From an uncultured Candidatus Saccharibacteria bacterium (GTDB lineage Bacteria > Patescibacteriota > Minisyncoccia > Minisyncoccales > CAZJYW01), in the NCBI GenBank assembly GCA_964550395.1, contig CAZJYW010000001.1:1-45659 (forward strand): DNA of 45,659 bases, given 5' to 3'. The notes below the pieces were generated by a model. The model was given only the letters and a program-made list of their open reading frames with translations. It ran no database searches and was not told where the DNA came from. The position numbers and the translations under genes were made by a program. Below are positions 34-40,747 of this stretch, in pieces; the stretch's first letter is position 1; the number at the start of each line of letters is the position of its first letter.

Positions 34-3000
34 ATGGCTAACATTCAAAAGATAATTCTTTTAACGCTGTTTTTAGCTTTTTTGCTTCTTGGTTTCCAAG
101 TCTTTGCCGCTGAGTGTAATTCAAGCGGTTGGAATAATAGTGACTGTACGGTTGATATTTATTATGGAGACCCTGGCGGAGGGTCAGATTTAGCTGAATG
201 TAAATTTGGGACACTAAATGGCACGCCACCACTTCCAAGTTGTTCTACAGTCGAAAACTGGGATACGGCTTGTGTCTGCGGTGGTGCAAGCACTACCTGT
301 AACGGTATAAATATAACAATTGGTTCCGGAGGAAAATGTAGTAGTCAAGGAGAAGGAGCTTGTAAAGTTTGTTCTAAAGCAGTCGATACCGCCGGGAATG
401 AAGGATATTGTGATGACATAGTAGATAATTGTTTATCTTTAAATATTGATTATACTCTTCCTGAAACCGCTATTGAATGTGATAGTACGACCTGCTCAGC
501 CAGTTGGTACAACGCCGACATAAGTATTACCCTACTTTGTTCAGATAGTCATTCTGGTTGCGATAAAACTTATTATTGCGTTGGCCAGATTGATTCCTGT
601 GACCCCGACCCAACCGTAGACGGAATAGAGTATACTGGCGCTTTTACTCTTACAACCGAGGGAACAAATTATGTTAAATATTATTCAATAGACATAGCTG
701 GCAATATTGAGCAGCCAACAAAATCACAAACAATAAAATTAGATAAAAATGACCTCTCTGGTACCTTAACTATTTCCCCGATGACAGTTCAGGTTGATGA
801 AACATTTACTGTTTCAGTTGATAGCCAAGACTCCTTAAGTGGGGTTAATTATATTCATCTTTATCGAGAAGGTTCCCAGATTGATTCTTGTAACTGTGGA
901 GGATTAAATTCCTGTTCTCATTCTTGGAATCTTACTGAATCAACCGAAGGAGTATATACCTATCAAGCTTTAATTTATGATATAGCTGGAAACTCTGTCT
1001 TTAGCAATGCTGAGGAGGTAACCGTAATTCCTCCCGATACCACCCCTCCAGCAACTACCTTAGATGAATATCTACCCGACCCAACCAACGACAATACCCC
1101 AACCTGTTCTGGAGCCTCCATTGATACCCAGAGCCAGGTAGTGGATATTGAATACCGAGTAGACGGAGGGAGCTGGCAAGATGTTGATTTATTTACTCCA
1201 GCTCTTTCTGTTATCTTTACCTTCACCCCCTCGTCTTTAACAGATGGAACTCATACCTTTGAAGTCAGGGCTCAAGATGAAGCAGGTAATTGGGAACAAT
1301 CTCCCTATTCCAGTGACACCTTAACCATTGATACTACTCCACCCACTACCACTATCTCTCCCGATGGAGAAGATTGGGGGAATTCTGACGTTGACTTCAC
1401 TCTAAGCTGTGATGATGGGACAGGTTCTGGCTGTCAAGCTACTGAGTACAAGATAATAGACCAGAGTCAAACCTGCGATACCTCTGATTTAATCACTGGG
1501 AATTCAGGAACAGTCACCTGCCCGGAGGGCCAAACCTGCCAAAAGAAGGTCTGTTTTAGAAGTATTGATAATCTAAACCAGGAAGAGCCGATTAATACCT
1601 CAAATCTTTTTAAGATTGATAAAATAGACCCATCAGGAACCCTTGAAGTTAGCCCAGATTCACCAATAGTGGGAGAAGATATCACCATCACCATTAGCGC
1701 TAACGATGGAGAAAGTGGAGTGGATTATCTTTTAGTTGAAGATGACGGAACTTATTTACCGTCTCAAGATTGTGGTGGAGCTGCTACCTGTGATAAGAGC
1801 TGGATAGTCCAAGAAACAGTATCTGGAGACTATACCTATTGTGGTTTAATCTATGATTTAGCTGCCAATATTAACAATACTACTCCTTATTGTATTACTA
1901 TTACAGTAAAAGAAGCTATTACTCCTCCTACTGTTGAAACTGATCCAGCGACTAATATTGAGGAAACCTCAGCCACTTTAAATGGAAGAGTAATTGCTAC
2001 TGGCGGAGAAGACCCCACTAGATATTTTAAGTGGGATACCACGAACAATTCTATTATTTGGGTGTCACCAACTGGCCACAATGATCCTGATAACGGATGG
2101 AATAATGAAGGAAATGCATATGATGGGGATACTGGTACCCGTGCTACTACTCCGAGTTTAACCGTCGGCACATGGAGTACTTTCCTAGAGCTTACTCATA
2201 CAGCCATAAATTGTAGTAAGATTAGATTCTTTTTAAGTTTTTTAACATATCTTTTATCTGAAGTTGATATAGATGTTTATTATGGGGGCGCATGGCACGA
2301 TGTATACCAAGGTGGTTACACAAAGGATGAATGGATTGAGAAAGATATACCAGCAGGCGAACAGCTTGTTACTAAGGCCCGCTTTAGAGTAAAGAGGGCT
2401 TATAGTGATGGAATAGGTGAACTTAATGAGTTTGATTTCGGAGAAGTTTCTTATGTCAATACTGAAAATTGTGGAATTGGAGGTCCGGGTACTTATTCTG
2501 CTCCTATCTCTGGTTTATCACCCGGAGAAGTATATTATTTTAGAGCAGCAGCTGAGAACATAGCTGGCATGTCTTATGCCGCTAATGAAGAGAAATTCCT
2601 AACTAAACCAGAACCACCTACTAATCTAATTGCTACAGCAGTTAGCCTAGATGAAATTGACTTGACTTGGACTCCAGGGCAAGGCGCTGATTATACTGAG
2701 GTTTGGAGAAAAGAGAGTAGCTGTCCAACTGCCAGAGGGGATGGAGATTTGTTAGCTGGGACAACCTTAGATTATTATAATGATACCGGATTGGATTCTG
2801 GGACTACTTATTGCTATGGTCTTTGGTCTGTAGTTTCAAAAGAAGGTTTGACCCAATATTCAGATGAGGAGCAGTGCGAATGTGCTACTACTATAGCGGA
2901 CACTACCCCTCCAGCAACTACCTTAGATGAATATCTACCAGACCCAACCAACGACAATACTCCAACCTATTCTGGAGCTTCTACTGATACCCAGAGCCAA

Positions 3001-6000
3001 GTAGCAGATATTGAATACCGGGTAGATGGAGGTTCCTGGCTAGATGTTGATTCCTTTACTCCAGCTCCCTCTGTTTCTTTTGCCTTTACCCCTTCTCCTT
3101 TAGTTGATGGAACTCATACCTTTGAAGTTAGGGCTCAAGATGAAGCAGGCAATTGGGAACAATCTCCTTATCCCAGTGACACCTTAACTATTGATACTAC
3201 TCCGCCTCTCACCACTATCTCTCCCGATGGAGAAGATTGGGGGAATTCTGATGTTGACTTCACTCTAAGCTGTGACGATGGAACAGGTTCTGGTTGCCAA
3301 ACTACTGAGTACAAGATAATAGACCAGAGTCAAACCTGTGATACTTCTGATTTAATCACTGGGAATTCAGGAACAGTCACCTGCCCAGAGGACCAAACCT
3401 GCCAAAAGAAGGCCTGTTTTAGAAGTATTGATAATCTAAACCAGGAAGAGACAATTAATACCTCAAATCTTTTTAAGGTTGATAAGATAAACCCTTCAGG
3501 AACCCTTGAAGTTAGTCCAGATTCACCAATAGTGGAAGAAGATATTACCATTACCATTAGTGCTAATGATGGAGAAAGTGGAGTTGATTATCTTTTAGCT
3601 GAAGATGACGGAACCTATTTACCGTCTCAAGATTGTGGTGGAGCTGCCATCTGTGATAAGAGCTGGATAGTCCAAGAAACAGTAGCTGGAGACCATACCT
3701 ATTGTGGTTTAATCTATGATTTAGCTGCCAACGTTAACAACACTACTCCTTATTGTATTACTATTACTGTTACTATTTCTGACGATACTCCGCCTTACGT
3801 AGAGGTAATTGCTGATCCTCCTGAAGTAAAAACTACCTGGCAGAATACTGATGCCACCGCTAATGTTTCTTGTTCTGATCCTGATACTTGGACTTGTGGC
3901 GATTCAGTCACCTTCACTTACAAAGGTAGCTCTGTTACTTATGGAACAGTAGAGAGTCAGGGTAAGTGTTGGATGGATAGAAATCTTGGCGCCTCGCGAA
4001 TGGCTTGGTCCTACAATGACTCTTTGGCTTACGGAGATTTGTTCCAGTGGGGCAGATTGGATGATGGTCATCAAACTCGCACCAGTGGTAAAACTACGAC
4101 CCTTTCCAGCACAGATATCCCCGGCCACAGTAATTTCATCTACGTTACGAGCCCCATTTATGACGACTGGAGATCTCCCCGAAATGATAACCTTTGGCAA
4201 GGAGTTTCAGGTACCAACAATCCTTGCCCTTCTGGTTGGCGGATACCTGCTGAGGCAGAGTGGGACACTGAACGAGCCAGCTGGAGCCAGCAGAACTATA
4301 TTGGCGCTTTTGACAGCCCCCTTAAACTTACCGTTGGTGGTTACCGGTATTACAGAGACGCTTCCCTCCACGGTATGGGTAGCTACGGCCAATATTGGGC
4401 TTCCACTGTGGATGGTTCGTACGCTAGCAGCCTGCACTTTCAAAACAACGCTGCCGATACGGATCCCGACCACCGGGCCGTCGGTTTTTCGGTTCGCTGT
4501 ATCAAAGATTCAGATTCAGATTTAGGCTGTGATTCAGCATCTTACAGGTTAAAAACCTATACTGTAAACCCTGGGACTTGTTCAACTAACTATGCCGATT
4601 ATACTTTAGCTTCTCCCCAGACTGTTTCTTCTTATCAATGGCTTTGCGGAACAGCCAAGGATTTAGTTGGCAATGCTGGCTTCTCCAGCCCAGTAGAATT
4701 TAAGGTTGACAAGATTAATCCTTCAGGAGCTTTAACTGTTAGCCCGGAGAATCCAATCATTGGCCAAGATATTACCATTACCATTGTTGGCCAGGATGGA
4801 GAAAGTGGAGTAGGTGATGTTTTAGCTAAAGATGATGATGATTGGTTAATAACAAAAAATTGTGGAGGAACTTCTCCTTGTAATAAAAATTGGGTAGTCC
4901 AGGAGACAGCAGCTGGAGACCATACCTATTGTGGTTTAGTTTATGATGTGGCTGATAGCTACTTTTATACCAATTGTAAGACAATAACGGTAACTACTAC
5001 TGGACTTGTTTGCGATGTAAATGTTCAGAATAATACGGCGGTTGTAAATCAATGGATTTCAATTAATGTTTCTGGCTCTCAGGGAGCGATAGCCGAAGTC
5101 CGTTTTACTAGTAATTTGATTGGTGAGCCTGCTGGCAGCTGGACTGATTGGTATGGCTGGGATGTTTCTTCTGGTGATTGGGATGCCAGTTTCAAGATAA
5201 TGAAATGGAGTTTTGCTGAAACAGGAAATTACGAAGTCTGGGTAGAATTAAAAGATGGAAGTGGCAACACCCAGGCTTGCTATGACACAATTTTAATTAT
5301 GGAGTGTTATCCCGGCCAGACAAAAACCTGTACTTCCTTCCAAGATTGTAGTCATACAATAACTTGCCAACCAAACGGGACCTGGCCTTCTTGTCCAGAA
5401 GACCAATGCGTATCTGGAACCACTCAATCTTGTGGAGTAAATGGACTTCAAACCTGCATTGATACCTGTACCTGGGGACCTTGTGTTACCCCGCCACCTG
5501 ACGGTGATGGCTGTCCTTGGCCACCAGATATTAGTTGTGATATTTGCTGGAAACCGGTATGTAATACCGAAACTGATGAGTGGGAATGTCAGCCTGATCT
5601 TGATGCGGCCGGGACCGACTGCGGTGATTGTTTAATGTGTGATAACAGCGGAAATTGCAGTATCCCTCTTTGTTCAGGGATTGCCGAAAGTTGTGAATGT
5701 ATTCCGGGTTCTCCAGATTCCTGCAAAGATTGTTCTGATTATGGAATTGAATGCGGTTATAAAGAAGGACCTTGTTATTGCGGTCAATACGAATATCCAA
5801 TTTGGAGTTGCGATGAGGGAGAATGCCAATGTTACTGTCAGGAGGATGAAACCGGTGAAATCTGTCCAAGCGAGCCGCCTGAAGAATGTGAGTATAGTCC
5901 ACCTATTGTCAGCATAGTTCCGGACTATCGAGAGGGAGCAGCGGGCGACCGTTTAACTTATACCGTTTCGGTTATCAATCAGGATGAGGGAGTGGAATGT

Positions 6001-6900
6001 GAATCCTCTAATTTCATTTTAAGCACAGGTGGAATTTGCGATAGTTGGAATTGTGATTTAGATTCGCTAACTTTAACCATCGCTCCACAATGTTCTCAAA
6101 CCACCCAATTACATGTCAGCTCACCCGCTGAGCCCCTTGCTCCCAAAGAATACTATGTTATTTCGGTTGCTGCTGTTAATCAGACAAGCGGACTTTTCGG
6201 AGCCGATGAAGCTATTTATAAAGTCCTTAATAATCCTCCCTCAGCGATAAGCCTTTCTGCAACACCCATTGGCGATTGCTTTCTTAACCACCCATATGTT
6301 AGATTGGAATGGTCTTTTTCCGACCCTGATTTAGCTTCGGGTGATAAGCAATCTGCTCGTGAAGTAGAAATATTTAGCGACCCGGGTTACATCAATCTGG
6401 TAAATAGGATTCCTGAGCCGGATTATTCCCCTGGTTCTACTGAATATGCTCCCAATACCGGCTTATCTTTCAATGCCACTTATTACTGGAGGGCAAGAGT
6501 TTGGGATAATGAAGGCGCTCTTTCAGACTGTGGCCAGCCCGAGGGCTGGTGTTATCCAGAACAACCCTCTTTCCATACTGAAAAAGAATGGCCCTGGCCT
6601 TATTTTTCAGTTGCCCCTCTTACTCAAAGAGTTCATTTGAAGGAGAGGGTTGAGTTTACTGACGAATCTACATGTTATGATGGTCCTTGTAATTTTAGTC
6701 CCACAACTTATTACTTATGGGAATTCGGCGATGGAGGAACCAGCCCGGAGAAGGTTAAAACTTCCCATATTTACTCGGCAACAGGAAACTACGACGTTAC
6801 TTTAACCATAACTGATGATATCGGGGAATGTACTTATGGCCCGATACAAATAGTCGTCACCCTTCCTCTGCCAGAATGGTGGGAGATAGCACCATTTTAA
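34..6900 (+). CDS. Giant secreted cysteine-rich multidomain surface protein (2288 aa): signal peptide, repeated Ig-like beta-sandwich modules, fibronectin type III, FISUMP-type domain, Cys-rich module, C-terminal PKD domain
   Basis: Uninterrupted 6.9-kb ORF. The N-terminus MANIQKIILLTLFLAFLLLGFQVFA/AE looks like a Sec signal peptide. An fn3-like stretch reads PEPPTNLIATAVSLDEIDLTWTP. FISUMP motifs are CWMDRNLGA, CPSGWRIP, GGYRYY, YWAST and GFSVRCIKD. The PKD-like motif is WEFGDGGTS...HIYSATGNYDVTLTITD. The module DKI(D/N)PSGTLxVSP...GESGV...YCGLIYD recurs four times. Confidence 0.85.
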   Translation: MANIQKIILLTLFLAFLLLGFQVFAAECNSSGWNNSDCTVDIYYGDPGGGSDLAECKFGTLNGTPPLPSCSTVENWDTACVCGGASTTCNGINITIGSGGKCSSQGEGACKVCSKAVDTAGNEGYCDDIVDNCLSLNIDYTLPETAIECDSTTCSASWYNADISITLLCSDSHSGCDKTYYCVGQIDSCDPDPTVDGIEYTGAFTLTTEGTNYVKYYSIDIAGNIEQPTKSQTIKLDKNDLSGTLTISPMTVQVDETFTVSVDSQDSLSGVNYIHLYREGSQIDSCNCGGLNSCSHSWNLTESTEGVYTYQALIYDIAGNSVFSNAEEVTVIPPDTTPPATTLDEYLPDPTNDNTPTCSGASIDTQSQVVDIEYRVDGGSWQDVDLFTPALSVIFTFTPSSLTDGTHTFEVRAQDEAGNWEQSPYSSDTLTIDTTPPTTTISPDGEDWGNSDVDFTLSCDDGTGSGCQATEYKIIDQSQTCDTSDLITGNSGTVTCPEGQTCQKKVCFRSIDNLNQEEPINTSNLFKIDKIDPSGTLEVSPDSPIVGEDITITISANDGESGVDYLLVEDDGTYLPSQDCGGAATCDKSWIVQETVSGDYTYCGLIYDLAANINNTTPYCITITVKEAITPPTVETDPATNIEETSATLNGRVIATGGEDPTRYFKWDTTNNSIIWVSPTGHNDPDNGWNNEGNAYDGDTGTRATTPSLTVGTWSTFLELTHTAINCSKIRFFLSFLTYLLSEVDIDVYYGGAWHDVYQGGYTKDEWIEKDIPAGEQLVTKARFRVKRAYSDGIGELNEFDFGEVSYVNTENCGIGGPGTYSAPISGLSPGEVYYFRAAAENIAGMSYAANEEKFLTKPEPPTNLIATAVSLDEIDLTWTPGQGADYTEVWRKESSCPTARGDGDLLAGTTLDYYNDTGLDSGTTYCYGLWSVVSKEGLTQYSDEEQCECATTIADTTPPATTLDEYLPDPTNDNTPTYSGASTDTQSQVADIEYRVDGGSWLDVDSFTPAPSVSFAFTPSPLVDGTHTFEVRAQDEAGNWEQSPYPSDTLTIDTTPPLTTISPDGEDWGNSDVDFTLSCDDGTGSGCQTTEYKIIDQSQTCDTSDLITGNSGTVTCPEDQTCQKKACFRSIDNLNQEETINTSNLFKVDKINPSGTLEVSPDSPIVEEDITITISANDGESGVDYLLAEDDGTYLPSQDCGGAAICDKSWIVQETVAGDHTYCGLIYDLAANVNNTTPYCITITVTISDDTPPYVEVIADPPEVKTTWQNTDATANVSCSDPDTWTCGDSVTFTYKGSSVTYGTVESQGKCWMDRNLGASRMAWSYNDSLAYGDLFQWGRLDDGHQTRTSGKTTTLSSTDIPGHSNFIYVTSPIYDDWRSPRNDNLWQGVSGTNNPCPSGWRIPAEAEWDTERASWSQQNYIGAFDSPLKLTVGGYRYYRDASLHGMGSYGQYWASTVDGSYASSLHFQNNAADTDPDHRAVGFSVRCIKDSDSDLGCDSASYRLKTYTVNPGTCSTNYADYTLASPQTVSSYQWLCGTAKDLVGNAGFSSPVEFKVDKINPSGALTVSPENPIIGQDITITIVGQDGESGVGDVLAKDDDDWLITKNCGGTSPCNKNWVVQETAAGDHTYCGLVYDVADSYFYTNCKTITVTTTGLVCDVNVQNNTAVVNQWISINVSGSQGAIAEVRFTSNLIGEPAGSWTDWYGWDVSSGDWDASFKIMKWSFAETGNYEVWVELKDGSGNTQACYDTILIMECYPGQTKTCTSFQDCSHTITCQPNGTWPSCPEDQCVSGTTQSCGVNGLQTCIDTCTWGPCVTPPPDGDGCPWPPDISCDICWKPVCNTETDEWECQPDLDAAGTDCGDCLMCDNSGNCSIPLCSGIAESCECIPGSPDSCKDCSDYGIECGYKEGPCYCGQYEYPIWSCDEGECQCYCQEDETGEICPSEPPEECEYSPPIVSIVPDYREGAAGDRLTYTVSVINQDEGVECESSNFILSTGGICDSWNCDLDSLTLTIAPQCSQTTQLHVSSPAEPLAPKEYYVISVAAVNQTSGLFGADEAIYKVLNNPPSAISLSATPIGDCFLNHPYVRLEWSFSDPDLASGDKQSAREVEIFSDPGYINLVNRIPEPDYSPGSTEYAPNTGLSFNATYYWRARVWDNEGALSDCGQPEGWCYPEQPSFHTEKEWPWPYFSVAPLTQRVHLKERVEFTDESTCYDGPCNFSPTTYYLWEFGDGGTSPEKVKTSHIYSATGNYDVTLTITDDIGECTYGPIQIVVTLPLPEWWEIAPF
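1036..1907 (+). repeat. Intragenic direct repeat, copy 1 (872 bp)
   Basis: Colinear with 2899-3770 at a constant offset of 1863 nt, with no indels seen. Confidence 0.9.
2899..3770 (+). repeat. Intragenic direct repeat, copy 2 (872 bp)
   Basis: The protein copies (DTTPPATTLDEYLPDPTNDNTPT...YCITITV) differ at about two dozen of roughly 290 residues by manual comparison. Confidence 0.9.
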
Positions 6901-6967: not shown

Positions 6968-8497
6968 ATGAATCTACTTATTCCTTTAATCGCGGGCATA
7001 GTGGCTATTTCTCTGGGCTCAATTTTGGGTTACTATACTCGTCAATCAATTGCCAAAAGAAATTATCGGACTATCGAAGCCCGTCTTCAAAAGAAAATTT
7101 CTCAAGCCAAAACTCAAACTGAAGAAATTTTGGCCGGAGCCCAAAAAGAAGCCAATCAAATTCTGGAGACAACAAAAAAAGAAACAGACGAGAGGAGAAC
7201 AGCCCTTTTCAATACCGAAAGGGTTTTACTGAAGAGAGAAAATATTTTAGAAAACAAACTTTCGGCTTTTGAATCAACTGAGCGAGCCTTCCAGGAAAAA
7301 GTCAGAAAACTGAGAGAGATAAAAGAAAGCTTGGAGAGCTTAAAAACCGAGGCTTTGGAAAAATTGGAGAGAATTTCTGGGCTTCCCAGAAAAGAAGCAA
7401 AAAAAGAATTGTTAGAAAATCTGGAAAAAGAATATCAGAAAGAAATTTTAGAAAAAATTAAAAAACTGGAAACCGAAAGCCAAGACCAATTTGAGAGAAA
7501 AGCAAAGGAAATTTTAGCTCAGGCCATCCAAAAATTCGCTCTTTCCCAAGCTCAAGAAATTACCACGACCACGGTCCCCCTTCCCTCAGAAGAAATCAAA
7601 GGAAGAATTATTGGTAAGGAAGGAAGAAACATCAGAACTTTAGAGAAATTAACCGGGGTGGAAATAATAGTGGATGAGACTCCCGAAGCAGTAGTGATTT
7701 CTGGCTTCGACCCAATTAGACGCCAAATTGCTAAAACTGCCTTGGAAAAGTTAATTCAAGATGGAAGAATTCAGCCAGCCAGGATTGAAGAAACAGTAGA
7801 AGCAACCCAAAAAGAAATAGCTTCTCAAATCAGAGAGGCTGGAGAGCAGGCCATTTACGATACCGGCTTAGTGGGTTTTGACCCAAAATTAGTTCAATTG
7901 TTAGGTAGATTAAAATTTAGAACTAGCTATGGCCAGAATGTTTTACTGCATTCAATCGAGGTTAGCCATCTTGCCGCGGCCTTAGCCGCTGAAATTGGAG
8001 CCGATTCTTTAATTTGCAAAAAAGCCGGCCTACTTCACGACATTGGTAAAGCAGTTGATCAGCAGGTTGAGGGTTCCCATGTTGATATCGGAATTAAAAT
8101 TTTGGAAAAATTTGGGGTGGAAAAAGAAGTAATTGATGCCATGAAATCACATCATGAAGAATATCCTTATCAAACCATTGAAGCAGTGATTGTCCAGGCG
8201 GCAGACCAAATTTCCGGCGCCCGACCCGGGGCCAGAAAAGATACTTTAGAAAATTATCTTAGGAGATTAGGGGATTTGGAAAATATTGCTTTGAGTTTTC
8301 CGGGAGTTGAGCGGGCCTGGGCTTTGCAGGCTGGCCGAGAAATAAGAGTTTTTGTTAAACCAGAAGAAGTTGATGACCTCTCGGCTAAAAAACTGGCTAA
8401 AGAAATTGCCAACAAAATTCAGGAAGAATTAAAGTATCCTGGCGAAATAAAAGTTAATTTAATTAGGGAAAACCGAGTAATTGAGTACGCAAAGTAA
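6968..8497 (+). CDS. rny: Ribonuclease Y
   Basis: N-terminal TM helix, long Lys/Glu coiled coil, KH domain (IKGRIIGKEGRNIRTLEKLTGVEIIVD) and HD domain (LLHDIGKA...HH). Confidence 0.93.
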   Translation: MNLLIPLIAGIVAISLGSILGYYTRQSIAKRNYRTIEARLQKKISQAKTQTEEILAGAQKEANQILETTKKETDERRTALFNTERVLLKRENILENKLSAFESTERAFQEKVRKLREIKESLESLKTEALEKLERISGLPRKEAKKELLENLEKEYQKEILEKIKKLETESQDQFERKAKEILAQAIQKFALSQAQEITTTTVPLPSEEIKGRIIGKEGRNIRTLEKLTGVEIIVDETPEAVVISGFDPIRRQIAKTALEKLIQDGRIQPARIEETVEATQKEIASQIREAGEQAIYDTGLVGFDPKLVQLLGRLKFRTSYGQNVLLHSIEVSHLAAALAAEIGADSLICKKAGLLHDIGKAVDQQVEGSHVDIGIKILEKFGVEKEVIDAMKSHHEEYPYQTIEAVIVQAADQISGARPGARKDTLENYLRRLGDLENIALSFPGVERAWALQAGREIRVFVKPEEVDDLSAKKLAKEIANKIQEELKYPGEIKVNLIRENRVIEYAK

Positions 8498-10112: not shown

Positions 10113-11864
10113 ATGAAAGTAGACCCGGGACAACTAAGAGCCTTTCTTTTAGACGCTGGTTTAGTAACCGAGAAACAATTTGACGAGGCTCAAAAAAAAG
10201 CAGAGGAAACCAAACAAAAAGTTGGTGATGTTTTGATTTCTGAAGGCCTAATTTCCCAAGAAGAACTAATTAAACTCGAAGCCTATATTTTGGGAATTCC
10301 TTTTGTAGATTTAGAAAAAGAAATTGTTCCGCCGGAAGCTCTGAAAATTATTCCTGAACCCATTGCTCGTTCTCATAATATCGTTGCTTTCAGAAAAAAG
10401 GGAAACGATTTAGAGGTAGCCATGTTAGATCCTGAAGACTTAAGAACAATTGAGTTTATTAAAAAGAAGGAACCTGGATTAAAAATTTTACCAAGGCTAA
10501 CTACTCCGGAATCAATCAAAAATGTCTTAAGACAATATCAAAAAACTCTTGAGGCTGAGTTTGGAGAAATTATCAAAAAAGAAGCTAAGGGGATTAAAAT
10601 TATCAGTGAAAAGGGAGTAGTAGAAGAAAAAGAGGAACTTAAAAAAATAGCTGGGGAGATTCCAATAATCAGGATTGTTGATACTTTAATGAAGCACGCC
10701 ATTTTAGAGAGAGCTTCCGACATCCATATTGAACCCCTGGAAAAAGAAGTAATAGTTAGATATCGAATTGATGGAATTTTGCATGATACGATGACTTTGC
10801 CCAAAACAGCGGCTTCTGGAATTGTAGCCAGGATAAAGGTTTTATCAAATTTAAAATTAGACGAACATCGACTTCCCCAAGATGGAAGATTTAAAATTGA
10901 AACTGAGGAATATCGATATTCGATTCGAGTTTCAATTTTACCAGTTTTTGATGGAGAAAAAATTGTGATGCGGCTTTTATCTGAGACCTCTAAAGCCCAT
11001 ACCTTAGAAGGCTTAGGTTTTATGGGAGATGCTTTGGAAAGAGTTCAGGACAATTTAAGAAAGCCAGTAGGGATGATTTTAATAACTGGACCTACTGGCT
11101 GCGGGAAAACTACCACTCTTTATGCCATGATGGAAATTTTGAATATTCCTGGAGTAAATATTTCTACAGTAGAAGACCCAGTTGAATACCGAATGCCCAG
11201 AATTAATCAAACTCAGGTTAGACCAAAAATTGGATTAACTTTTGCCTCAGGGCTTAGAGCTTTGGTTAGACAAGACCCAGATATTATTATGGTGGGGGAA
11301 ATTAGAGATAATGAAACAGCTGGTTTAGCTATTAATGCTGCCTTAACCGGTCACTTAGTTTTGTCTACTTTACACACTACTGATGCGGCTGGGGCCATTC
11401 CTAGATTGATTGACATGAAAGCCGAGCCATTTTTAATTTCCTCCACTTTAAATTTAATTTTAGCCCAGCGATTAGTGAGACGGTTTTGCAACGAAAAAGA
11501 AAAATATACTTTAACTGATTCTGAAATAAAAAATTTAAAAAAATATTGCGACCCAGACAGAATTCTGAAGATTCTAAAGGAGGAAAAAATAATAAAACCA
11601 AAAGAAAGTTTCCGAGACATCGGATTCTATCGGCCCAAACCATCTAAAGAATGTCCTGAGGGATATAAGGGCAGAATTGGAATTTACGAATCCTTACCAG
11701 TTACTGAAACCATCAAGGAATTAATTGTTAAAAGAGCAACTTCTTACCAAATCACCGCTCAAGCCCAAAAAGAGGGAATGAGAGCTATGATTGAAGATGG
11801 TTTCGTTAAGGCAGCCCAAGGGATAACCAGTATTGAGGAGGTATTAAGAGTAATCATTGAATAG
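10113..11864 (+). CDS. pilB: Type IV pilus assembly ATPase PilB (GspE family)
   Basis: N-terminal T2SSE_N-like domain, Walker A GPTGCGKTTT, GspE-type Asp and His boxes (MVGEIRD, TGHLVLSTLHT). Confidence 0.92.
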   Translation: MKVDPGQLRAFLLDAGLVTEKQFDEAQKKAEETKQKVGDVLISEGLISQEELIKLEAYILGIPFVDLEKEIVPPEALKIIPEPIARSHNIVAFRKKGNDLEVAMLDPEDLRTIEFIKKKEPGLKILPRLTTPESIKNVLRQYQKTLEAEFGEIIKKEAKGIKIISEKGVVEEKEELKKIAGEIPIIRIVDTLMKHAILERASDIHIEPLEKEVIVRYRIDGILHDTMTLPKTAASGIVARIKVLSNLKLDEHRLPQDGRFKIETEEYRYSIRVSILPVFDGEKIVMRLLSETSKAHTLEGLGFMGDALERVQDNLRKPVGMILITGPTGCGKTTTLYAMMEILNIPGVNISTVEDPVEYRMPRINQTQVRPKIGLTFASGLRALVRQDPDIIMVGEIRDNETAGLAINAALTGHLVLSTLHTTDAAGAIPRLIDMKAEPFLISSTLNLILAQRLVRRFCNEKEKYTLTDSEIKNLKKYCDPDRILKILKEEKIIKPKESFRDIGFYRPKPSKECPEGYKGRIGIYESLPVTETIKELIVKRATSYQITAQAQKEGMRAMIEDGFVKAAQGITSIEEVLRVIIE

Positions 11865-11929
11865 CCGAGCCACCGAAGGTGGCGAAGGCTGGAGATGAAG
11901 GCAAACCCGAAGGGGCAAACTTCATCGAC
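11864..11929 (+). repeat. GC-rich two-hairpin repeat element, copy A (pilB-pilC intergenic)
   Basis: GCCGAGCCACCGAAGGTGGCGAAGGCTGGAGATGAAGG...CTTCATCGAC. Hairpin 1 is GCCACC-GAA-GGTGGC and hairpin 2 has the stem GATGAAG/CTTCATC. It matches 38578-38630 and the reverse complement of 24243-24301. Confidence 0.85.
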
Positions 11930-22820: not shown

Positions 22821-23251
22821 AAAAAAGGAAAAAGGAACCGGAAAATTTTAAGGAGATTTTAGCTTATTTTAAGGATTTGGAAAAAAACTTTGAAAAGATT
22901 TCGGAAGAATTAGAAAATTTGAAAAAAGAAAGTCAGTTTTCTATTCAGAAAATCGGCCTAGTTAGATTTAACCCATTTAAAGAAATTGGTGGAGACCAAA
23001 GTTTTTCAGTTGCTTTGTTAGACGACAATGATTCGGGAATTGTTATTACCAGTTTATATACCAGGGAAGGTAACCGAGTTTATGGAAAGCCAATCGAGAG
23101 GGGTTTATCCAAATATTTATTATCAGAGGAAGAGAACCAAGCCCTGGAAATAGCCAAAAAAAATGCCGAAAACAACCAAAAAAAACTTAACCCGCCTGAC
23201 GGCGAGGCAGGTCACCCGACCACCGGTGGTGGTGGTGCTTGGGCACATTGA
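22805..23251 (+). CDS. DUF4446 family protein
   Basis: N-terminal coiled coil, then IGLVRFNPFKEIGGDQSFSVALLDDNDSGIVITSLYTREGNRVYGKPI, which is typical of DUF4446. The last 89 nt overlap infB, so the 3' end is uncertain. Confidence 0.7.
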   Translation: MLKFFKKRKKEPENFKEILAYFKDLEKNFEKISEELENLKKESQFSIQKIGLVRFNPFKEIGGDQSFSVALLDDNDSGIVITSLYTREGNRVYGKPIERGLSKYLLSEEENQALEIAKKNAENNQKKLNPPDGEAGHPTTGGGGAWAH

Positions 23252-24749
23252 CCATGGGAAAACGGCTCTCCTGGACCAGATTAGAAAAACCCACGTTGCA
23301 GAAAAAGAAACTGGCGGCATTACCCAGCATATCGGAGCTTATCAAATTGTTGAAGGTGATAAAAAAATAACTTTTATTGATACTCCTGGTCACGAAGCCT
23401 TTTCGGCAATGCGCTCCCGAGGTAGCAAAATAGCTGACTTGGCTATTTTAGTAGTGGATTCCTCGGAAGGAGTAAAAGCTCAAACTAAAGAGGCGATTTC
23501 TCATATTAAAAAATCAGGAATTCCAATAATTGTTGCCTTAAACAAAATTGATAAACCCGAAGCTAATCCAGAAAAAGCTAAAAGGGAACTGGCTCAGGAA
23601 GATGTTGTGGTTGAATCGCTGGACGGGAAAACTCCTTCAATTGAAATTTCGGCTCTCACTGGCCAGGGAATTCCTGAGCTCTTAGAATTGATATTATTAG
23701 TGGCCGAAATGGAAAATTTGAAAGTAGAGCTTATTAAGAAAGCGGAAGGAGTAGTAATCGAATCTTATTTAGACCGTTTAAGAGGGCCAACGGCTACTTT
23801 GCTCATTACCGAGGGAGTTTTAAAACAAGGTGATATTTTGGGTACTTTTTCTACCTTTGGGAAAATAAAAAAATTAGAAAACTTTCAAGGTTGCTCTATT
23901 GAAAAAGCCTTGCCTTCAGATCCGGCTGTTGTCATCGGGTTTGAAGATGTTCCTAAAGTTGGGGAAAATTTTAAAGTTTTTCCGGATTTGGAAACGGCTA
24001 AAAACTATCTTAAAATCCCAGCAAAAAAAGCTCCTGAAGTTTTATCCCCCACCGAGGTTCCTCTGGCAGAGGGCATAGACCAAAAGGTTTTAAATCTAAT
24101 TTTAAAAACCGACGTTTTTGGCTCAATTGAAGCCATTGAGGAAGTTTTAAATAATCTTCCCCAAGAGAGAGTGGTTTTAAGAATTTTAAAATCGGAAGCA
24201 GGGGAGATAAATGAGGGGGACATTAAGTTAATTAAAGGGGGTCGGGAGTCGATGAGGGCGAGGTCTTCATCTCCACCTTCGCTACCTTCGGTGGCTCGGT
24301 CATTAATTTTTGGCTTCCGGGTAAAAATCAATCCAACAGCCAAAATACTAGCCGAAAGAGAGAAAATTAAAATAATGACCTTTGACGTAATTTATGATTT
24401 AGTGGAGGGAGTTCGCAAATTTATGGAAAAAGAGCTTCGACCAGAGAAGGTTCGAACCGATTTGGGGAAAGTTAAAACTTCAGCAATTTTTCTTATAGAA
24501 AAAAATCGCCAGATTGTTGGAGGAAAAGTGATTGAAGGAGAAGTTAAAAAAGGAGCTTCGATTGAAATTTTTCGGGAAGAAAACCTTATTGGTAAAGGGA
24601 AGTTGGTCAATCTCCAGAAAAACAAAAAAGATGTCGATAGAGTTCCGAAAGGGGAGGAGTGCGGACTCCTTTACGAAGGTGATACCAGAATTGAAGAGGG
24701 GGATACATTAGCGATTTATCAAGAAGAAAGAAGGAAGAGTGAGCTGTAA
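23163..24749 (+). CDS. infB: Translation initiation factor IF-2 (short N-terminus) carrying an in-frame repeat insertion
   Basis: G-domain motifs GHIDHGKT, DTPGH and NKID. The C-terminal beta-barrel domains are present. An extra 20 aa (RESMRARSSSPPSLPSVARS) is encoded at 24243-24301. Confidence 0.92.
   Translation: MPKTTKKNLTRLTARQVTRPPVVVVLGHIDHGKTALLDQIRKTHVAEKETGGITQHIGAYQIVEGDKKITFIDTPGHEAFSAMRSRGSKIADLAILVVDSSEGVKAQTKEAISHIKKSGIPIIVALNKIDKPEANPEKAKRELAQEDVVVESLDGKTPSIEISALTGQGIPELLELILLVAEMENLKVELIKKAEGVVIESYLDRLRGPTATLLITEGVLKQGDILGTFSTFGKIKKLENFQGCSIEKALPSDPAVVIGFEDVPKVGENFKVFPDLETAKNYLKIPAKKAPEVLSPTEVPLAEGIDQKVLNLILKTDVFGSIEAIEEVLNNLPQERVVLRILKSEAGEINEGDIKLIKGGRESMRARSSSPPSLPSVARSLIFGFRVKINPTAKILAEREKIKIMTFDVIYDLVEGVRKFMEKELRPEKVRTDLGKVKTSAIFLIEKNRQIVGGKVIEGEVKKGASIEIFREENLIGKGKLVNLQKNKKDVDRVPKGEECGLLYEGDTRIEEGDTLAIYQEERRKSEL
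24243..24301 (-). repeat. GC-rich two-hairpin repeat element, copy C, in frame inside infB (inverted orientation)
   Basis: GTCGATGAGGGCGAGGTCTTCATCTCCACCTTCGCTACCTTCGGTGGCTCGGTC is the reverse complement of the element at 38578-38630, with a few substitutions. Confidence 0.85.
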
Positions 24750-25095: not shown

Positions 25096-25136
25096 TTCTT
25101 CTCCACCTTCGCCCCACTGTGGCGGGGATCGGTAAT
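25096..25136 (-). repeat. Partial or variant copy (D) of the two-hairpin element, just after the rbfA stop
   Basis: TCTCCACCTTCGCC is shared with copy C, followed by a different GC-rich segment (CCACTGTGGCGGGGATCGG). Confidence 0.55.
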
Positions 25137-25370: not shown

Positions 25371-25378
25371 CTAAAAAA

Positions 25379-25408
25379 CAGCCCGCGCGTCGCGCGGGCT
25401 GTTTGATT
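25379..25408. terminator. Strong GC hairpin terminator (likely bidirectional)
   Basis: CAGCCCGCGC-GTC-GCGCGGGCTG flanked by an upstream A-run and downstream TTTGATTT. It lies between the tRNA pair and the convergent 3D-domain gene. Confidence 0.75.
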
Positions 25409-25955: not shown

Positions 25956-25961
25956 TTTAAA

Positions 25962-25993
25962 ATCGAGCACATAACGCTTTATGTGCTCCGATT
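25962..25993. repeat. CGAGCACAT palindromic hairpin, copy 1
   Basis: TCGAGCACAT-AACGCTTT-ATGTGCTCCGA, related to 37004-37050 and 37162-37193. Confidence 0.7.
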
Positions 25994-26038
25994 TTACCAT
26001 ATTAGCTTATCCACGGGGAGATGTCAAGCCTAAAAATG

Positions 26039-26401: not shown

Positions 26402-26815
26402 TCATTTTACCACTTCGGCAAATTCTTTTTTCTTTACCTTTGCTTTTTTACCAACCCTTTTTCTTAGATAGTAAAGTTTTGCCCTCCTGACCCTTCCCCT
26501 TTTTAAAATTTCTATTTTTTCGATAGTTGGTAAGTGAACAGGGAAAATTCTTTCCACTCCGATTCCCGAAACCACTTTCCTCACCGTAATAGTTGAAGTA
26601 ATTCCTTGGCCATGTTTTCTGCATAAAACCTGCCCTTCAAAAACTTGAACTCTCTCTTTATCCCCCGAGGAGCCCGCGCCTTTGGCGCGGGAGGATGTGG
26701 TGAGGGGGGAGTAGTCTTTAATTTTTTGATAAACTTTAATAACGTCCCCCGGGCGAATGTCTGGCAAATCTTTTTTTAATTGGGTTTGATTAAAGATGTT
26801 TAGTTTGGTAGACAT
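26402..26815 (-). CDS. rplS: 50S ribosomal protein L19 with an in-frame insertion of about 16 aa
   Basis: L19 signatures [21 protein letters not shown]-like TVRKV, GVERIFP and RRAKLYYLR. The extra [16 protein letters not shown] lies between the first beta strands. Confidence 0.9.
26663..26714. repeat. GC-rich palindromic insertion inside rplS
   Basis: Perfect 8-bp stem CCCGCGCC-TTT-GGCGCGGG (26673-26691) inside a 52-nt GC-rich block. It shares AGCCCGCGC...GCGCGGG with the terminator at 25379-25401. Confidence 0.75.
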
Positions 26816-27567: not shown

Positions 27568-27643
27568 TGGTGGGCACGGTTGGATTCGAACCAACGAACC
27601 TTGGCCTTATAAGGACCCTGCTCTACCGCTGAGCTACGTGCCC
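27568..27643 (-). tRNA. tRNA with apparent anticodon UAU (Ile, AUA-reading), CCA encoded
   Basis: Acceptor GGGCACG/CGTGCCC. Anticodon arm GGGTC-CTTATAA-GGCCA, with one terminal mismatch. T-arm GTTGG-TTCGAAT-CCAAC. The variable region appears to be 6 nt. Confidence 0.65.
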
Positions 27644-37003: not shown

Positions 37004-37050
37004 AAATCAACCCGAGCACATAAATTGGGTTATGTGCTCGGTTGATTTTT
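37004..37050. terminator. CGAGCACAT palindromic hairpin, copy 2 (terminator-like, followed by a T-run)
   Basis: AATCAACCCGAGCACATAA-ATTGGG-TTATGTGCTCGGTTGATT followed by TTTT. Confidence 0.7.
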
Positions 37051-37157: not shown

Positions 37158-37161
37158 CTAA

Positions 37162-37193
37162 AACCGAGCACATAAAACGTTATGTGCTCGGTT
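37162..37193. terminator. CGAGCACAT palindromic hairpin, copy 3 (between tRNA-Leu and the convergent hsp20)
   Basis: AACCGAGCACATAA-AACG-TTATGTGCTCGGTT. Confidence 0.7.
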
Positions 37194-38561: not shown

Positions 38562-38577
38562 TTTTCAATCATTAAAC

Positions 38578-38630
38578 GCCGAGCCACCGAAGGTGGCGAA
38601 GGTGGAGATGAGGGACTCGCCCTCATCGAC
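38578..38630 (+). repeat. GC-rich two-hairpin repeat element, copy B (valS-prsW intergenic)
   Basis: GCCGAGCCACCGAAGGTGGCGAAGGTGGAGATGAGGGACTCGCCCTCATCGAC. Its last base is part of the valS stop codon. Confidence 0.85.
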
Positions 38631-40747
38631 TATTTGGGCCATTCCTCGATCATCAGGCATTTCTTTTTATTCTCTATTGGTAATTTTTGATAGATTTCTT
38701 CAGTGATGAAAGGCATGAATGGATGCAAAAGTTTTTGAGAAGTTAGTAATACATATAATAGAACTTTCTCTGTATTTTCTTTTTCAGTTTTGGATTTTGG
38801 ATTTTGGATTTTGGATTTCGATGATTCAATATAAACATCGCAGAAGTCATGCCAGAAAAAATTATAGAGGATATGGGCGGCCTGGCCGAACTGAAAACCT
38901 CCCAAATTTTTATTAACTGATTTTATTGTTTTATCTAAGGCTCGAAGAATTCTTTTATCAGCCAATGTTAACTTTGAGCCAGAGCACAAAATCTTTGTGC
39001 TCGGCCGAGCACTCAACCCTATTTGAGTACTCTGGTTTTGCATCATTACAAATCGGCTAGCATTCCAAATCTTGTTACAGAACTTCTTTCCCATAACTAT
39101 ATTGTCTTCAGTAAATCTAATATCCTGTCCTCCCATAATTTGCCAGGCTATCCCAAATCGGGTAGCATCGGCTCCATATTTTTCAATGAGATTTATCGGG
39201 TCTACTCCGGTACCAAGAGATTTTGACATTCTTTCCCCCTCTTTGGTTAAAACAGTAGCATGGACATAGACCTCTCGAAATGGCTCTTTTTTCATAAATT
39301 CCATCCCGGAAAATATCATCCTGGCTACCCAGAGATTTATAATTCCTCGGTCAGTACTCAGAACATTGGTTGGATAAAACCTTTTTAAGTCTTTGGTTTT
39401 TTGGGGCCAACCAAGGGTGGCAAATGGCCAGAGAGCAGAGGAAAACCAGGTATCCAGAACATCGTTCACGCCTTTTAAGGGTATTTTATGACCCCACCAG
39501 ATTTGTCTGGAAATGCACCAATCTCTGATGTTCTTTAACCAGTCAAAGTAGATTTTTTCCCACCTTTTGGGAATAAATTTTATCCGGCCTAATTTAACAG
39601 CCTTGATAGATTTTTTAGCCAGTTTATCCATTTTTAAAAACCACTGCTTAGAGGGAATCAATTCAACCGTTGTGTTGCAGCGGTAACATTTAGGAACTTG
39701 ATGATTGTACTCCTCAACTTTTTCTAAAAGTCCTAATTTTTCCAAATCTTCAACCACTTTTTGTCTAACCTCCAAAACCTTTAAGCCCCGGTATGGCAGA
39801 GGAGAATTTTTAGTCATTCTGCCGTTTTCATCAATTACTTTAACTGAACCTAATTTATGCCGGAGACCAATTTCGTAGTCGGTCAAATCGTGGGCTGGAG
39901 TAATTTTAACAGCGCCAGTGCCAAATTTTGGGTCAACTAATCCATCAGCCACGATAGGAATTTTTTTATTGACTAAAGGCAAAGTAACTTTTTTACCGAT
40001 TAATTTTTTATATCTTTTGTCGCCGGGATTAACGGCAACCGCCGTGTCTCCCAGCATGGTTTCGGGTCTGGTGGTGGCAACAGTTATAAAAGGAGGATAT
40101 TTTATATACCAAAGATGACCCTTTTCTTCTTTATATTCTAATTCTAGGTCTGATAAAGAGGTGGCGCACCTTGAACACCAATTGATTACTCTTTCTCCTT
40201 GATAAATCCAGCCTTTTTTGTAGTAATGTAAAAAGGCAGCTTCCACTGCTCGGATATAATCTTTGTCCATGGTAAAACGGGCTCTCGACCAATCAAACGA
40301 AGCGCCTAATTTTTTAAATTGATTTAAAATTATATTTTCGTATTGATCCATCCAGTCCCACATTGTTTTAATAAACTTTTCTTTACCTAAATCAAACCTT
40401 GTTTTACCTTCTTTTTTTAATTTTTTCTCTACTTTGTTTTGGGCAGAGATGCCGGCATGGTCGGTGCCGGGCAGCCATAAAGTTTTAAATCCCTGAAGTT
40501 TTTTCCAGCGGATTAAAATATCCTGAACAGTGACATTTAAAGCATGGCCCATATGAAGCTCACCAGTAATATTTGGGGGAGGGATAACAATACAATAAGG
40601 CTTTTTATGACGTTTAGGAAGCTTATCAGGATTAAAAAAACCAGACTTTCGCCAGAGATTGTAAGTTTTATTTTCCACCTTTTTCGGATTATAAGCCTTC
40701 GGAAGTTTCATATATCTTATTCTATCAACTGACTTGCCTTTTTTCAA
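38630..40747 (-). CDS. valS: Valine--tRNA ligase (short form lacking the long C-terminal coiled coil)
   Basis: HIGH-type motif PPNITGELHMGHAL, KMSKS-type RMSKSLG, CP1 editing domain and anticodon-binding helices. The likely start is the internal ATG at 40711 (MKLPKAYNP). Confidence 0.92.
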   Translation of the reverse strand: MKKGKSVDRIRYMKLPKAYNPKKVENKTYNLWRKSGFFNPDKLPKRHKKPYCIVIPPPNITGELHMGHALNVTVQDILIRWKKLQGFKTLWLPGTDHAGISAQNKVEKKLKKEGKTRFDLGKEKFIKTMWDWMDQYENIILNQFKKLGASFDWSRARFTMDKDYIRAVEAAFLHYYKKGWIYQGERVINWCSRCATSLSDLELEYKEEKGHLWYIKYPPFITVATTRPETMLGDTAVAVNPGDKRYKKLIGKKVTLPLVNKKIPIVADGLVDPKFGTGAVKITPAHDLTDYEIGLRHKLGSVKVIDENGRMTKNSPLPYRGLKVLEVRQKVVEDLEKLGLLEKVEEYNHQVPKCYRCNTTVELIPSKQWFLKMDKLAKKSIKAVKLGRIKFIPKRWEKIYFDWLKNIRDWCISRQIWWGHKIPLKGVNDVLDTWFSSALWPFATLGWPQKTKDLKRFYPTNVLSTDRGIINLWVARMIFSGMEFMKKEPFREVYVHATVLTKEGERMSKSLGTGVDPINLIEKYGADATRFGIAWQIMGGQDIRFTEDNIVMGKKFCNKIWNASRFVMMQNQSTQIGLSARPSTKILCSGSKLTLADKRILRALDKTIKSVNKNLGGFQFGQAAHILYNFFWHDFCDVYIESSKSKIQNPKSKTEKENTEKVLLYVLLTSQKLLHPFMPFITEEIYQKLPIENKKKCLMIEEWPK
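38787..38817. repeat. Heptanucleotide tandem repeat (GGATTTT, about 4 units) inside valS
   Basis: GTTTTGGATTTTGGATTTTGGATTTTGGATTT, encoding SKSKIQNPKSK on the minus strand. Confidence 0.8.
38978..39035. repeat. Double GAGCAC-type hairpin block, in frame inside valS
   Basis: GAGCACAAA-ATC-TTTGTGCTC (38982-39002), then CGAGCACTCAA-CCCTAT-TTGAGTACTCTG. The block encodes the QSTQIGLSARPSTKILCSGSK loop. Confidence 0.65.

Follow-up and report, generated by a model that had tools for sequence, protein, structure and literature searches.

The RPEs of Rickettsia are palindromic repeats of about 100-150 bp, present in dozens per genome (Ogata et al. 2000, as summarised in PMC10969869). The GC clusters of the yeast mitochondrial var1 gene are polymorphic between strains and are also found at intergenic positions (PMC8811140). 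MITEs, REP-type repeats, SPRITE and the QMITEs of Coxiella are small non-autonomous structured repeats, which are mostly intergenic and often placed at terminator positions (PMC10969869, PMC5896051). In CPR bacteria, Tsurumaki et al. describe bL19 as enlarged and note nothing more on this protein (PMC9297842). Full-text literature searches yielded no description of such elements in Patescibacteria. We describe here an element in rplS, the gene of ribosomal protein bL19, on a contig of 45,659 nucleotides from an uncultured Candidatus Saccharibacteria bacterium (the whole stretch is referred to as the window). The element is most probably a 48-nt GC-rich palindromic repeat of the RPE/GC-cluster kind that was inserted into rplS and would be translated as a 16-residue loop extension.

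Like the RPEs (PMC10969869), the L19 element is a repeated palindrome that stands in frame in housekeeping genes of unrelated kinds, in a genome that is small and AT-rich, and it would be translated as a conserved extra peptide at fold-compatible sites. Unlike the RPEs, it is only 48 nt long, has a single 8-bp G/C hairpin, is Patescibacterial and recurs at the same loop across lineages; the two are likened by behaviour and not by sequence. With the var1 GC clusters it shares the short GC-rich palindrome placed in frame in a ribosomal protein gene of an AT-rich genome, and its presence in some strains but not in others. Those clusters, however, are mitochondrial, carry terminal AG/TAG repeats taken as target-site duplications, and are non-homologous to it (PMC8811140). 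The L19 element also resembles the occasional in-frame QMITEs of Coxiella (PMC5896051). In contrast to MITEs, it is a clean 48-nt addition with one internal hairpin instead of terminal inverted repeats, it has neither a target-site duplication nor a cognate IS, and full copies are seen only inside genes. GC-rich hairpin inserts of about 30-55 nt in coding sequence are likewise known as the byp elements of Magnusiomyces capitatus mitochondria and from T4 gene 60. Byps are untranslated and unconstrained in length and stop codons, whereas the L19-type inserts are in frame and free of stops in every copy. REP/RAYT systems combine a short imperfect extragenic palindrome, bearing a GTAG-type tetranucleotide, with a RAYT gene. 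The L19 element has a palindrome and a CTAC (GTAG) start, but its copies are genic and a Y1 transposase is absent from the window.

The G+C content of the window is 38.6%. Twenty tRNA genes lie in it, along with type IV pilus genes and genes for FtsH, GyrA, LeuRS and RecG. The nearest named relatives of its bL19 belong to Minisyncoccales, Paceibacterota and 'Patescibacteria group' bacteria, which places the window in a candidate-phyla-radiation (CPR) genome. A scan of genome contigs with the bL19 alignment selected peptides of universal conservation and returned mostly unrelated phyla, the close ones being only L001 (Minisyncoccales) and L002 (Paceibacterota); loci on other contigs are designated by such L numbers throughout. 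A tRNA-Ile with anticodon UAU (tat) was predicted by ARAGORN at 27568-27643. This tRNA is uncommon in bacteria, where AUA is usually read by a lysidine-modified CAU anticodon. A 2288-aa Ig-like/PKD surface protein is encoded at 34-6900 and contains internal direct repeats of about 0.3 kb, 1863 nt apart (1036-1335 with 2899-3198, and 1609-1864 with 3472-3727); repeats spaced in this way indicate a recent internal duplication. The gene rplS and the features of its insert are as follows.

26402..26815, minus strand: rplS, ribosomal protein bL19, 137 aa, host of the insert (PF01245, E 8.8e-38; PDB bL19 matches, best E 3.7e-33).
26667..26714, minus strand: family-1 element CTACTCCCCCCTCACCACATCCTCCCGCGCCAAAGGCGCGGGCTCCTC, 48 nt, corresponding to the 16 extra bL19 residues (empty alleles; copies in pheT, gatB and ftsH; GC3).
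26673..26691, either strand: perfect 8-bp all-G/C hairpin CCCGCGCC-TTT-GGCGCGGG, with AAA as the loop on the coding strand (pattern search and fold).
26661..26710, minus strand: predicted outer mRNA stem UCCCCC/GGGGGA around the hairpin, 26705-26710 pairing with 26661-26666 (minimum-free-energy fold only).

The bL19 of the window matches the PF01245 profile over positions 4-111 of 111 with 129 bits, the insert appearing as a gap. When the protein is aligned to solved bL19 chains, a single gap opens after ...YQKIK(D), and it spans exactly 16 residues. The boundaries of the 48-nt block were set from empty alleles and are ambiguous by 1-2 nt. The block is 71% GC, and its GC3 is 0.875 versus 0.32 for the genome. 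The extra codons read GAC TAC TCC CCC CTC ACC ACA TCC TCC CGC GCC AAA GGC GCG GGC TCC TCG. The hairpin pattern has one match in the whole window even when three mismatches are allowed (0.01 expected from shuffles), and for the insert RNA the predicted fold has a minimum free energy of -25.8 kcal/mol (z = -3.4). Neither strand has a T run beside the hairpin, and the terminator scan makes no call at this site; as the hairpin has no U tract, the mRNA is not expected to be terminated there. An Rfam search of the window and of the hairpin-carrying loci returned tRNAs only.

The nearest relatives, L175 and L176, have an empty rplS site, with the protein sequence KIKEGDKER and the DNA AAAGAAGGGGATAAAGAG at the insertion point. 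The empty alleles read CAAAAAATTAAAGAAGGGGATAAAGAG, and the window reads CAAAAAATTAAAGA, followed by the 48 nt and then GGGGGATAAAGAG. The 48 nt are thus cleanly added, and the target is not duplicated. Since the site is known in both an empty and a filled state, the block is a true insertion and not an ancestral feature. Outside the insert, the third-position identity of rplS between the window and the empty L175/L176 is 0.75, versus 0.49-0.53 between the window and the filled L086/L089/L090. The flanking genes back this rplS-based grouping only in part. RluD of L083 (0.82), L175 (0.77) and L179 (0.75) is close to that of the window, while that of the filled L089 is equally close (0.76) and that of the empty L176 is more distant (0.72). 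For FtsH, L083 and L176 both have a value of 0.92 against the window.

Among the 121 closest bL19 sequences the loop is hypervariable. No insert is present in 40 of them (KEGDK), 14 carry family A, which is the window-type insert, and eight carry an unrelated family B (PARIATQGVAGGKE); in the remaining sequences the inserts are of other kinds, and many of these are Lys-rich. When the 121 sequences are placed on a neighbour-joining tree, about seven gains or losses are required to account for family A, but the tree is weak, with about 110 residues behind it. The palindrome is retained by the family A genes in most lineages. Family B, as represented by the bL19 of L177, is inserted one codon upstream of family A and in another phase, and contains a different strong hairpin, TGCTACGC-AAG-GCGTTGCA (-20.9 kcal/mol, z -3.6). 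The rplS of L179 encodes KEGSPAGEK with the palindrome CCAGCTGG, which is only suggestive of a remnant footprint of the element.

An exact scan of metagenome contigs with the hairpin TCCCGCGCCAARGGCGCGGG gave 83 loci. The low-GC loci of this set include six rplS loci, and also two other genes in which the 48-nt sequence is present in full and is read in the rplS frame. The two other hosts are pheT in L102 (713 aa, with B3_4, B5 and FDX-ACB domains), where 17 residues stand between ...IFIKKQ and RNKKQ, and gatB in L134, where 16 residues stand between HLEEDVGRLVHER and YSLVDFNR. Pfam matches and alignments with solved structures confirm the identity of both genes. Their copies agree at 46 of 48 nt, are read in the same frame, and lie in a poorly conserved, gapped stretch of the alignments to solved homologues. 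A fuzzy search of the fetched loci added a decayed copy, GYNPPTTSSPLQRAP, in the L178 ftsH, where it falls in the C-terminal tail (1972-2016), and a comparison of FtsH tails added a decayed 39-nt copy, GACTCCAACCCACCCGCCACCCTCCCACTAAAAGAGGGCCCCT, in L083 (~4300-4345), which is read in frame 3 and gives LQPTRHPPTKRGP. In this comparison the ftsH genes of the window and of L176 were without the element. The intact copies are 81-98% identical at the nucleotide level, and the hosts are rplS, pheT, gatB and ftsH (twice). As the L083 ftsH copy is in another frame, what is repeated is DNA, and a peptide module is not indicated. Judged by these copies, family 1 is a repeated DNA element with at least four host genes and at least two reading frames. 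A functional module at the peptide level was considered in view of the frame shared by rplS, pheT, gatB and the L178 ftsH, and is weakened by the frame-3 copy.

The FtsH C-terminal tail is itself a recurrent landing site, with decayed family-1 copies in two lineages and in different frames. The 3' end of ftsH in L177 carries another, unrelated hairpin insert. The FtsH of L179 (2957-6187) is 1076 aa long and contains an intein (Intein_splicing and LAGLIDADG matches).

No full 48-nt copy at an intergenic position was found among the 83 metagenome hairpin matches, which is unusual for a selfish repeat. The 45.7-kb window holds one family-1 copy, versus three to four of family 2 (described below). 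A word search of 5.8 billion proteins with a 51-aa concatenate of three variants gave 39 candidates that share words with the peptide, none of them at E <= 10; with so few candidates, the family is small. A profile of the element flanked by X reached E ~1e-8 in a local test and gave 0 candidates in the protein index. Scans of viral contigs gave one match to the hairpin and 0 to the left arm. The exact 20-mer hairpin is also present at many intergenic low-GC sites, which were excluded from the family; their flanks differ and often lengthen the palindrome themselves. Recurrence of an 8-bp all-G/C stem by convergence is likely among 241 million records.

An earlier note on this DNA had reported a bL19 of 137 aa with 16 extra residues and a GC-rich block with a perfect hairpin at 26663-26714, and had proposed that a palindromic repeat entered the gene in frame. 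The extra residues are borne out by the PF01245 match and by the 16-residue gap against solved chains, and the block with its hairpin is present, with one pattern match in the window. The GC-rich insert stands, but the interval given for it was four flanking bases too long, the true insert being the 48 nt at 26667-26714. In-frame entry is confirmed, more strongly than the note could show, by the clean empty sites and by the 48-nt sequence in frame in pheT, gatB and ftsH. The alignment of L19 orthologs that it proposed shows that the extension is not clade-wide, and the search for further hairpins of the same type found the element in genes of other contigs and no second match in the window.

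The composition and the synonymous sites of the insert are those of foreign or constrained DNA, unlike those of the host gene. Mean third-position identity inside the 48 nt is ~0.85 across lineages and genes, versus ~0.5 elsewhere in rplS. The L083 and L090 rplS copies, from one sample, are identical at 47 of 48 nt though their host genes are saturated at synonymous sites. The probability of the codon choices, given the peptide and the genome codon usage, is 1.4e-12. Not all rplS copies are intact. The hairpin has decayed in L088, which gives no fold (-6.7 kcal/mol, z 0.05), and in L089 it has one mismatch together with 12 extra nt. In L090, 36 more nt are nested in the element (L090 493-528), including an inverted copy of the adjacent CCCACCAC; within them GGGTGGTGGG is an inverted copy of the neighbouring CCCACCACAT. 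By its sequence, this nested segment looks like a template-switch inverted duplication.

Among the L19 inserts, lengths of 48, 60 and 84 nt are found, and no stop codon interrupts any of them. The nine independent variants, including the IF2 insert of 54 nt (see below) and the L083 ftsH copy of 39 nt, are all open and multiples of 3, and this argues for inserts that are translated and not bypassed. Five of the six frames of the 48-nt element are open. The intact 5' ends begin with CTAC (GTAG on the opposite strand), those of L086 and L089 with TTAC, that of the L083 ftsH copy with CTCC and that of the decayed L088 copy with CCTG. The junction follows an A/G-rich run in every host (..AAAGA/CTAC, ..ACAAGA/CTAC, ..AGAGA/CTAC and ..AAGAGG/CTAC).

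In the AlphaFold2 model of the window bL19 (48 homologues), residues 25-33 and 54-66 form strands, residues 34-53 are coil, and pLDDT is < 50 at 37-49. The insert is predicted to be the tip of the first beta-hairpin of bL19, in the form of a disordered loop. The frame is kept, with lengths in multiples of 3 and no stops, at a site that appears permissive from its pLDDT of < 50. RsfS binds in a cavity between uL14, bL19 and H95, to whose lining S. aureus bL19 contributes Arg39, Arg41 and Gln43 (PMC7125091); by a numbering based on the alignment to solved bL19 chains, these residues lie 2-6 positions after the insertion point. Bridges B6 and B8 include bL19 (PMC3082907, PMC5388290), and the h14 contact is made through bL19 N-terminal residues (PMC10156603). 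Since the insertion site is beside interface residues, the extension would project from the rim of the subunit interface. The new loop would lie next to the bL19 residues that face uL14, H95 and 16S h14 (bridge B8) and may make a subunit-interface contact.

Other hairpin families are present in the window and in related loci. Their features in the window, together with the tRNA-Leu hairpin, are listed below.

24243..24296, plus strand: family-2 element, 54 nt (18 codons, two hairpins), in infB (IF2, 23163-24749), adding RESMRARSSSPPSLPSVA (empty IF2 genes).
38566..38631, minus strand: family-2 intergenic copy, beginning exactly at the leuS stop (TAG followed by TCGATGAGGG; complementarity to the IF2 copy).
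11860..11898, minus strand: family-2 partial intergenic copy, between the pilus ATPase (T2SSE) and platform (T2SSF) genes (complementarity).
25097-25133: family-2 partial copy.
25961-25994, 37012-37041 and 37160-37193: third hairpin family, CGAGCACAT...ATGTGCTCG, near tRNA genes.
25376..25404, plus strand: tRNA-Leu(taa) 3' hairpin AAACAGCCCGCGC-GTC-GCGCGGGCTGTTT, directly after the tRNA (position kept in L083, L085, L107 and L113).

The family-2 block is in the C-terminal part of IF2; in L176, L088 and L089 the IF2 gene does not contain it, and the site is cleanly empty. The 24243-24296 region is 86% complementary over 66 nt to 38566-38631 and about 90% complementary to 11860-11898. L086 and L090 carry family 2 as well, and there the first of its two hairpins is conserved; in L090 it lies inside an ORF, and in L086 it overlaps the rplS stop codon and supplies that stop. 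Being mostly intergenic with an occasional in-frame fusion, family 2 behaves in the window like MITE/terminator-like repeats (PMC10969869, PMC5896051). For the third family, L082 and L083, two near-identical strains, have another small hairpin, CCCCTTTTTAGGGG, in place of the 25961 copy. Most simply, small hairpin repeats would insert frequently and persist only at permissive sites of essential genes. In this group, core translation proteins appear to be lengthened by small repeats of this type.

Some further GC-rich stretches were observed in the window. The leuS gene (38630-40747, minus strand) encodes a LeuRS of only 705 aa, and its Anticodon_1 match ends at profile position 106 of 148, where the family-2 copy begins; the LeuRS C-terminus may have been cut short or exchanged by the repeat. 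A possible third in-frame insert is a GC-rich, hairpin-containing stretch near the start of infB (23185-23250, 5' end of the gene), which corresponds to about six extra N-terminal residues (TRLTARQV) relative to the IF2 of L176. Two GC-rich islands are also present at 8191-8341, in the C-terminal part of RNase Y (gene at 6968-8497).

The earlier note had also taken the L19 element for kin of a terminator at 25379-25401, and had suggested that terminator-like repeats enter genes. The second suggestion is shown directly in the window by a different family, family 2, which is both intergenic and in IF2, but the tie to this terminator was not demonstrated. The 9-mer AGCCCGCGC, common to the L19 insert and 25376-25404, has three exact matches versus 0.09 expected, and two of the three are the two arms of one palindrome. 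The 25376-25404 hairpin shares with the element the CCCGCGC core only. It is a tRNA-Leu terminator conserved in synteny, and it has no counterpart of the left arm, GACTACAACCCACCCACCGCATCC, the 24 non-palindromic nt by which the L19 element is defined. Stems of the CCGCGC type are the usual terminator style in the contigs of these genomes. From the shared core, kinship is possible.

A hairpin of the same kind is found in a larger element. L108 contains, at the 3' end of a tRNA, a 1.65-kb element with 84-nt terminal inverted repeats (3956-4039 and 5521-5604), which encodes a 504-aa large serine recombinase; each repeat holds a CCCGCGCC-NNN-GGCGCGGG hairpin in its middle. Inverted repeats of the same type are also present in L094, L104, L105, L111, L112, L154 and L162. 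A 47%-identical recombinase follows the tRNA-Leu just downstream of rplS in L086, and none is present there in L087. No similarity of the L19 element to the 84-nt repeat was found beyond the 21-nt hairpin core, the flanks being unrelated; the recombinase element is therefore a lead and not a link.

From these observations the following course of events is proposed. A 48-nt palindromic repeat would have landed in rplS at the codons for the tip of the first beta-hairpin, without target-site duplication and after an A/G-rich run (..AAAGA/CTAC..). The insert would supply 16 stop-free codons for a loop peptide rich in Pro, Ser, Thr, Gly and Ala, so that the gene would keep its function, and the element would be transcribed and translated as a disordered loop extension. 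The element would be mobile now or would have been so recently, landing widely and surviving only in permissive loops and tails of essential proteins. Such survival would explain the different hairpin inserts at the same bL19 loop and in the FtsH tail. The window encodes no transposase, and terminal inverted repeats and a target-site duplication are likewise absent; the HTH_23 proteins encoded close to rplS in L083-L085 give no clue. A much broader proposal is that undescribed hairpin elements of about 50 nt move between co-resident Patescibacteria lineages, repeatedly colonise permissive loops and tails of bL19, IF2, PheT, GatB and FtsH, and would be a main source of 'CPR-specific' ribosomal-protein extensions. 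In that proposal, mobilisation by serine recombinases via the hairpin may apply and the bL19 loop would be a new B8 contact. We regard it as rather unlikely.

The extension could instead be old, lineage-specific and vertically inherited, and bL19 could have retained it because it serves the ribosome, for instance in a B8/B6 contact; the palindrome would then be incidental or secondarily selected and the empty alleles would be precise losses. Extensions of more than about five residues, many of them Lys-rich, are indeed present at this loop in 76 of the 121 bL19 sequences. CPR bL19 is known to exceed the usual length (PMC9297842), and the loop adjoins interface residues (PMC7125091, PMC10156603). 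Family C (...KKGKSS..) could be decayed family A, and the exact same rplS position in distant lineages could mean ancient inheritance with precise losses. However, the inserts at this loop belong to unrelated families, at slightly different codons and in frames that differ relative to the hairpins, and the closest relatives are empty. The same 48-nt DNA is present in pheT, gatB and ftsH, the synonymous sites of the insert are far more conserved than those of the gene, and the insert decays freely in L088. Vertical inheritance is, on this evidence, improbable.

A functional nucleic-acid signal of rplS, acting in mRNA stability, processing, pausing or protein binding with the coding of a peptide as a by-product, is hard to reconcile with an element that is found at unrelated positions in four genes of different function and that the closest relatives lack entirely. 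Only identity or decay was seen among the copies and no covariation, and no Rfam family matches. We consider such a signal very doubtful, even though the structure is very stable and, between distant lineages, the hairpin shows no change at third codon positions. The identical 21-nt hairpin in the 84-nt serine-recombinase repeats also speaks for it, as a protein may recognise the hairpin.

Loss of the insert from the mature protein, by translational bypassing as for Magnusiomyces byp elements and T4 gene 60 or by mRNA removal, is highly improbable: an insert of about 50 nt with a GC-rich hairpin in an AT-rich genome does resemble byp elements (PMC8811140), but frame and stop codons would be unconstrained in a bypassed insert, whereas all variants (48, 60 and 84 nt; IF2 54 nt; L083 ftsH 39 nt) are stop-free multiples of 3 and no obvious take-off/landing codon pair surrounds the insert.

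Insertion of a palindromic repeat into rplS and its translation as a loop extension bear on several aspects of these bacteria. CPR ribosomal proteins carry unexplained lineage-specific extra regions, and in-frame capture of a palindromic repeat would be a concrete DNA-level origin for one of them. A third lineage, very large and with reduced genomes, would thereby join Rickettsia and fungal mitochondria as a setting for selfish DNA inside protein-coding genes. With the insert beside bridge B8 residues and the RsfS pocket, nature would have provided a test of the tolerance for an extra peptide at the subunit interface. Empty and filled alleles in co-occurring populations would offer a route to measuring the mobility of tiny elements in uncultured bacteria.
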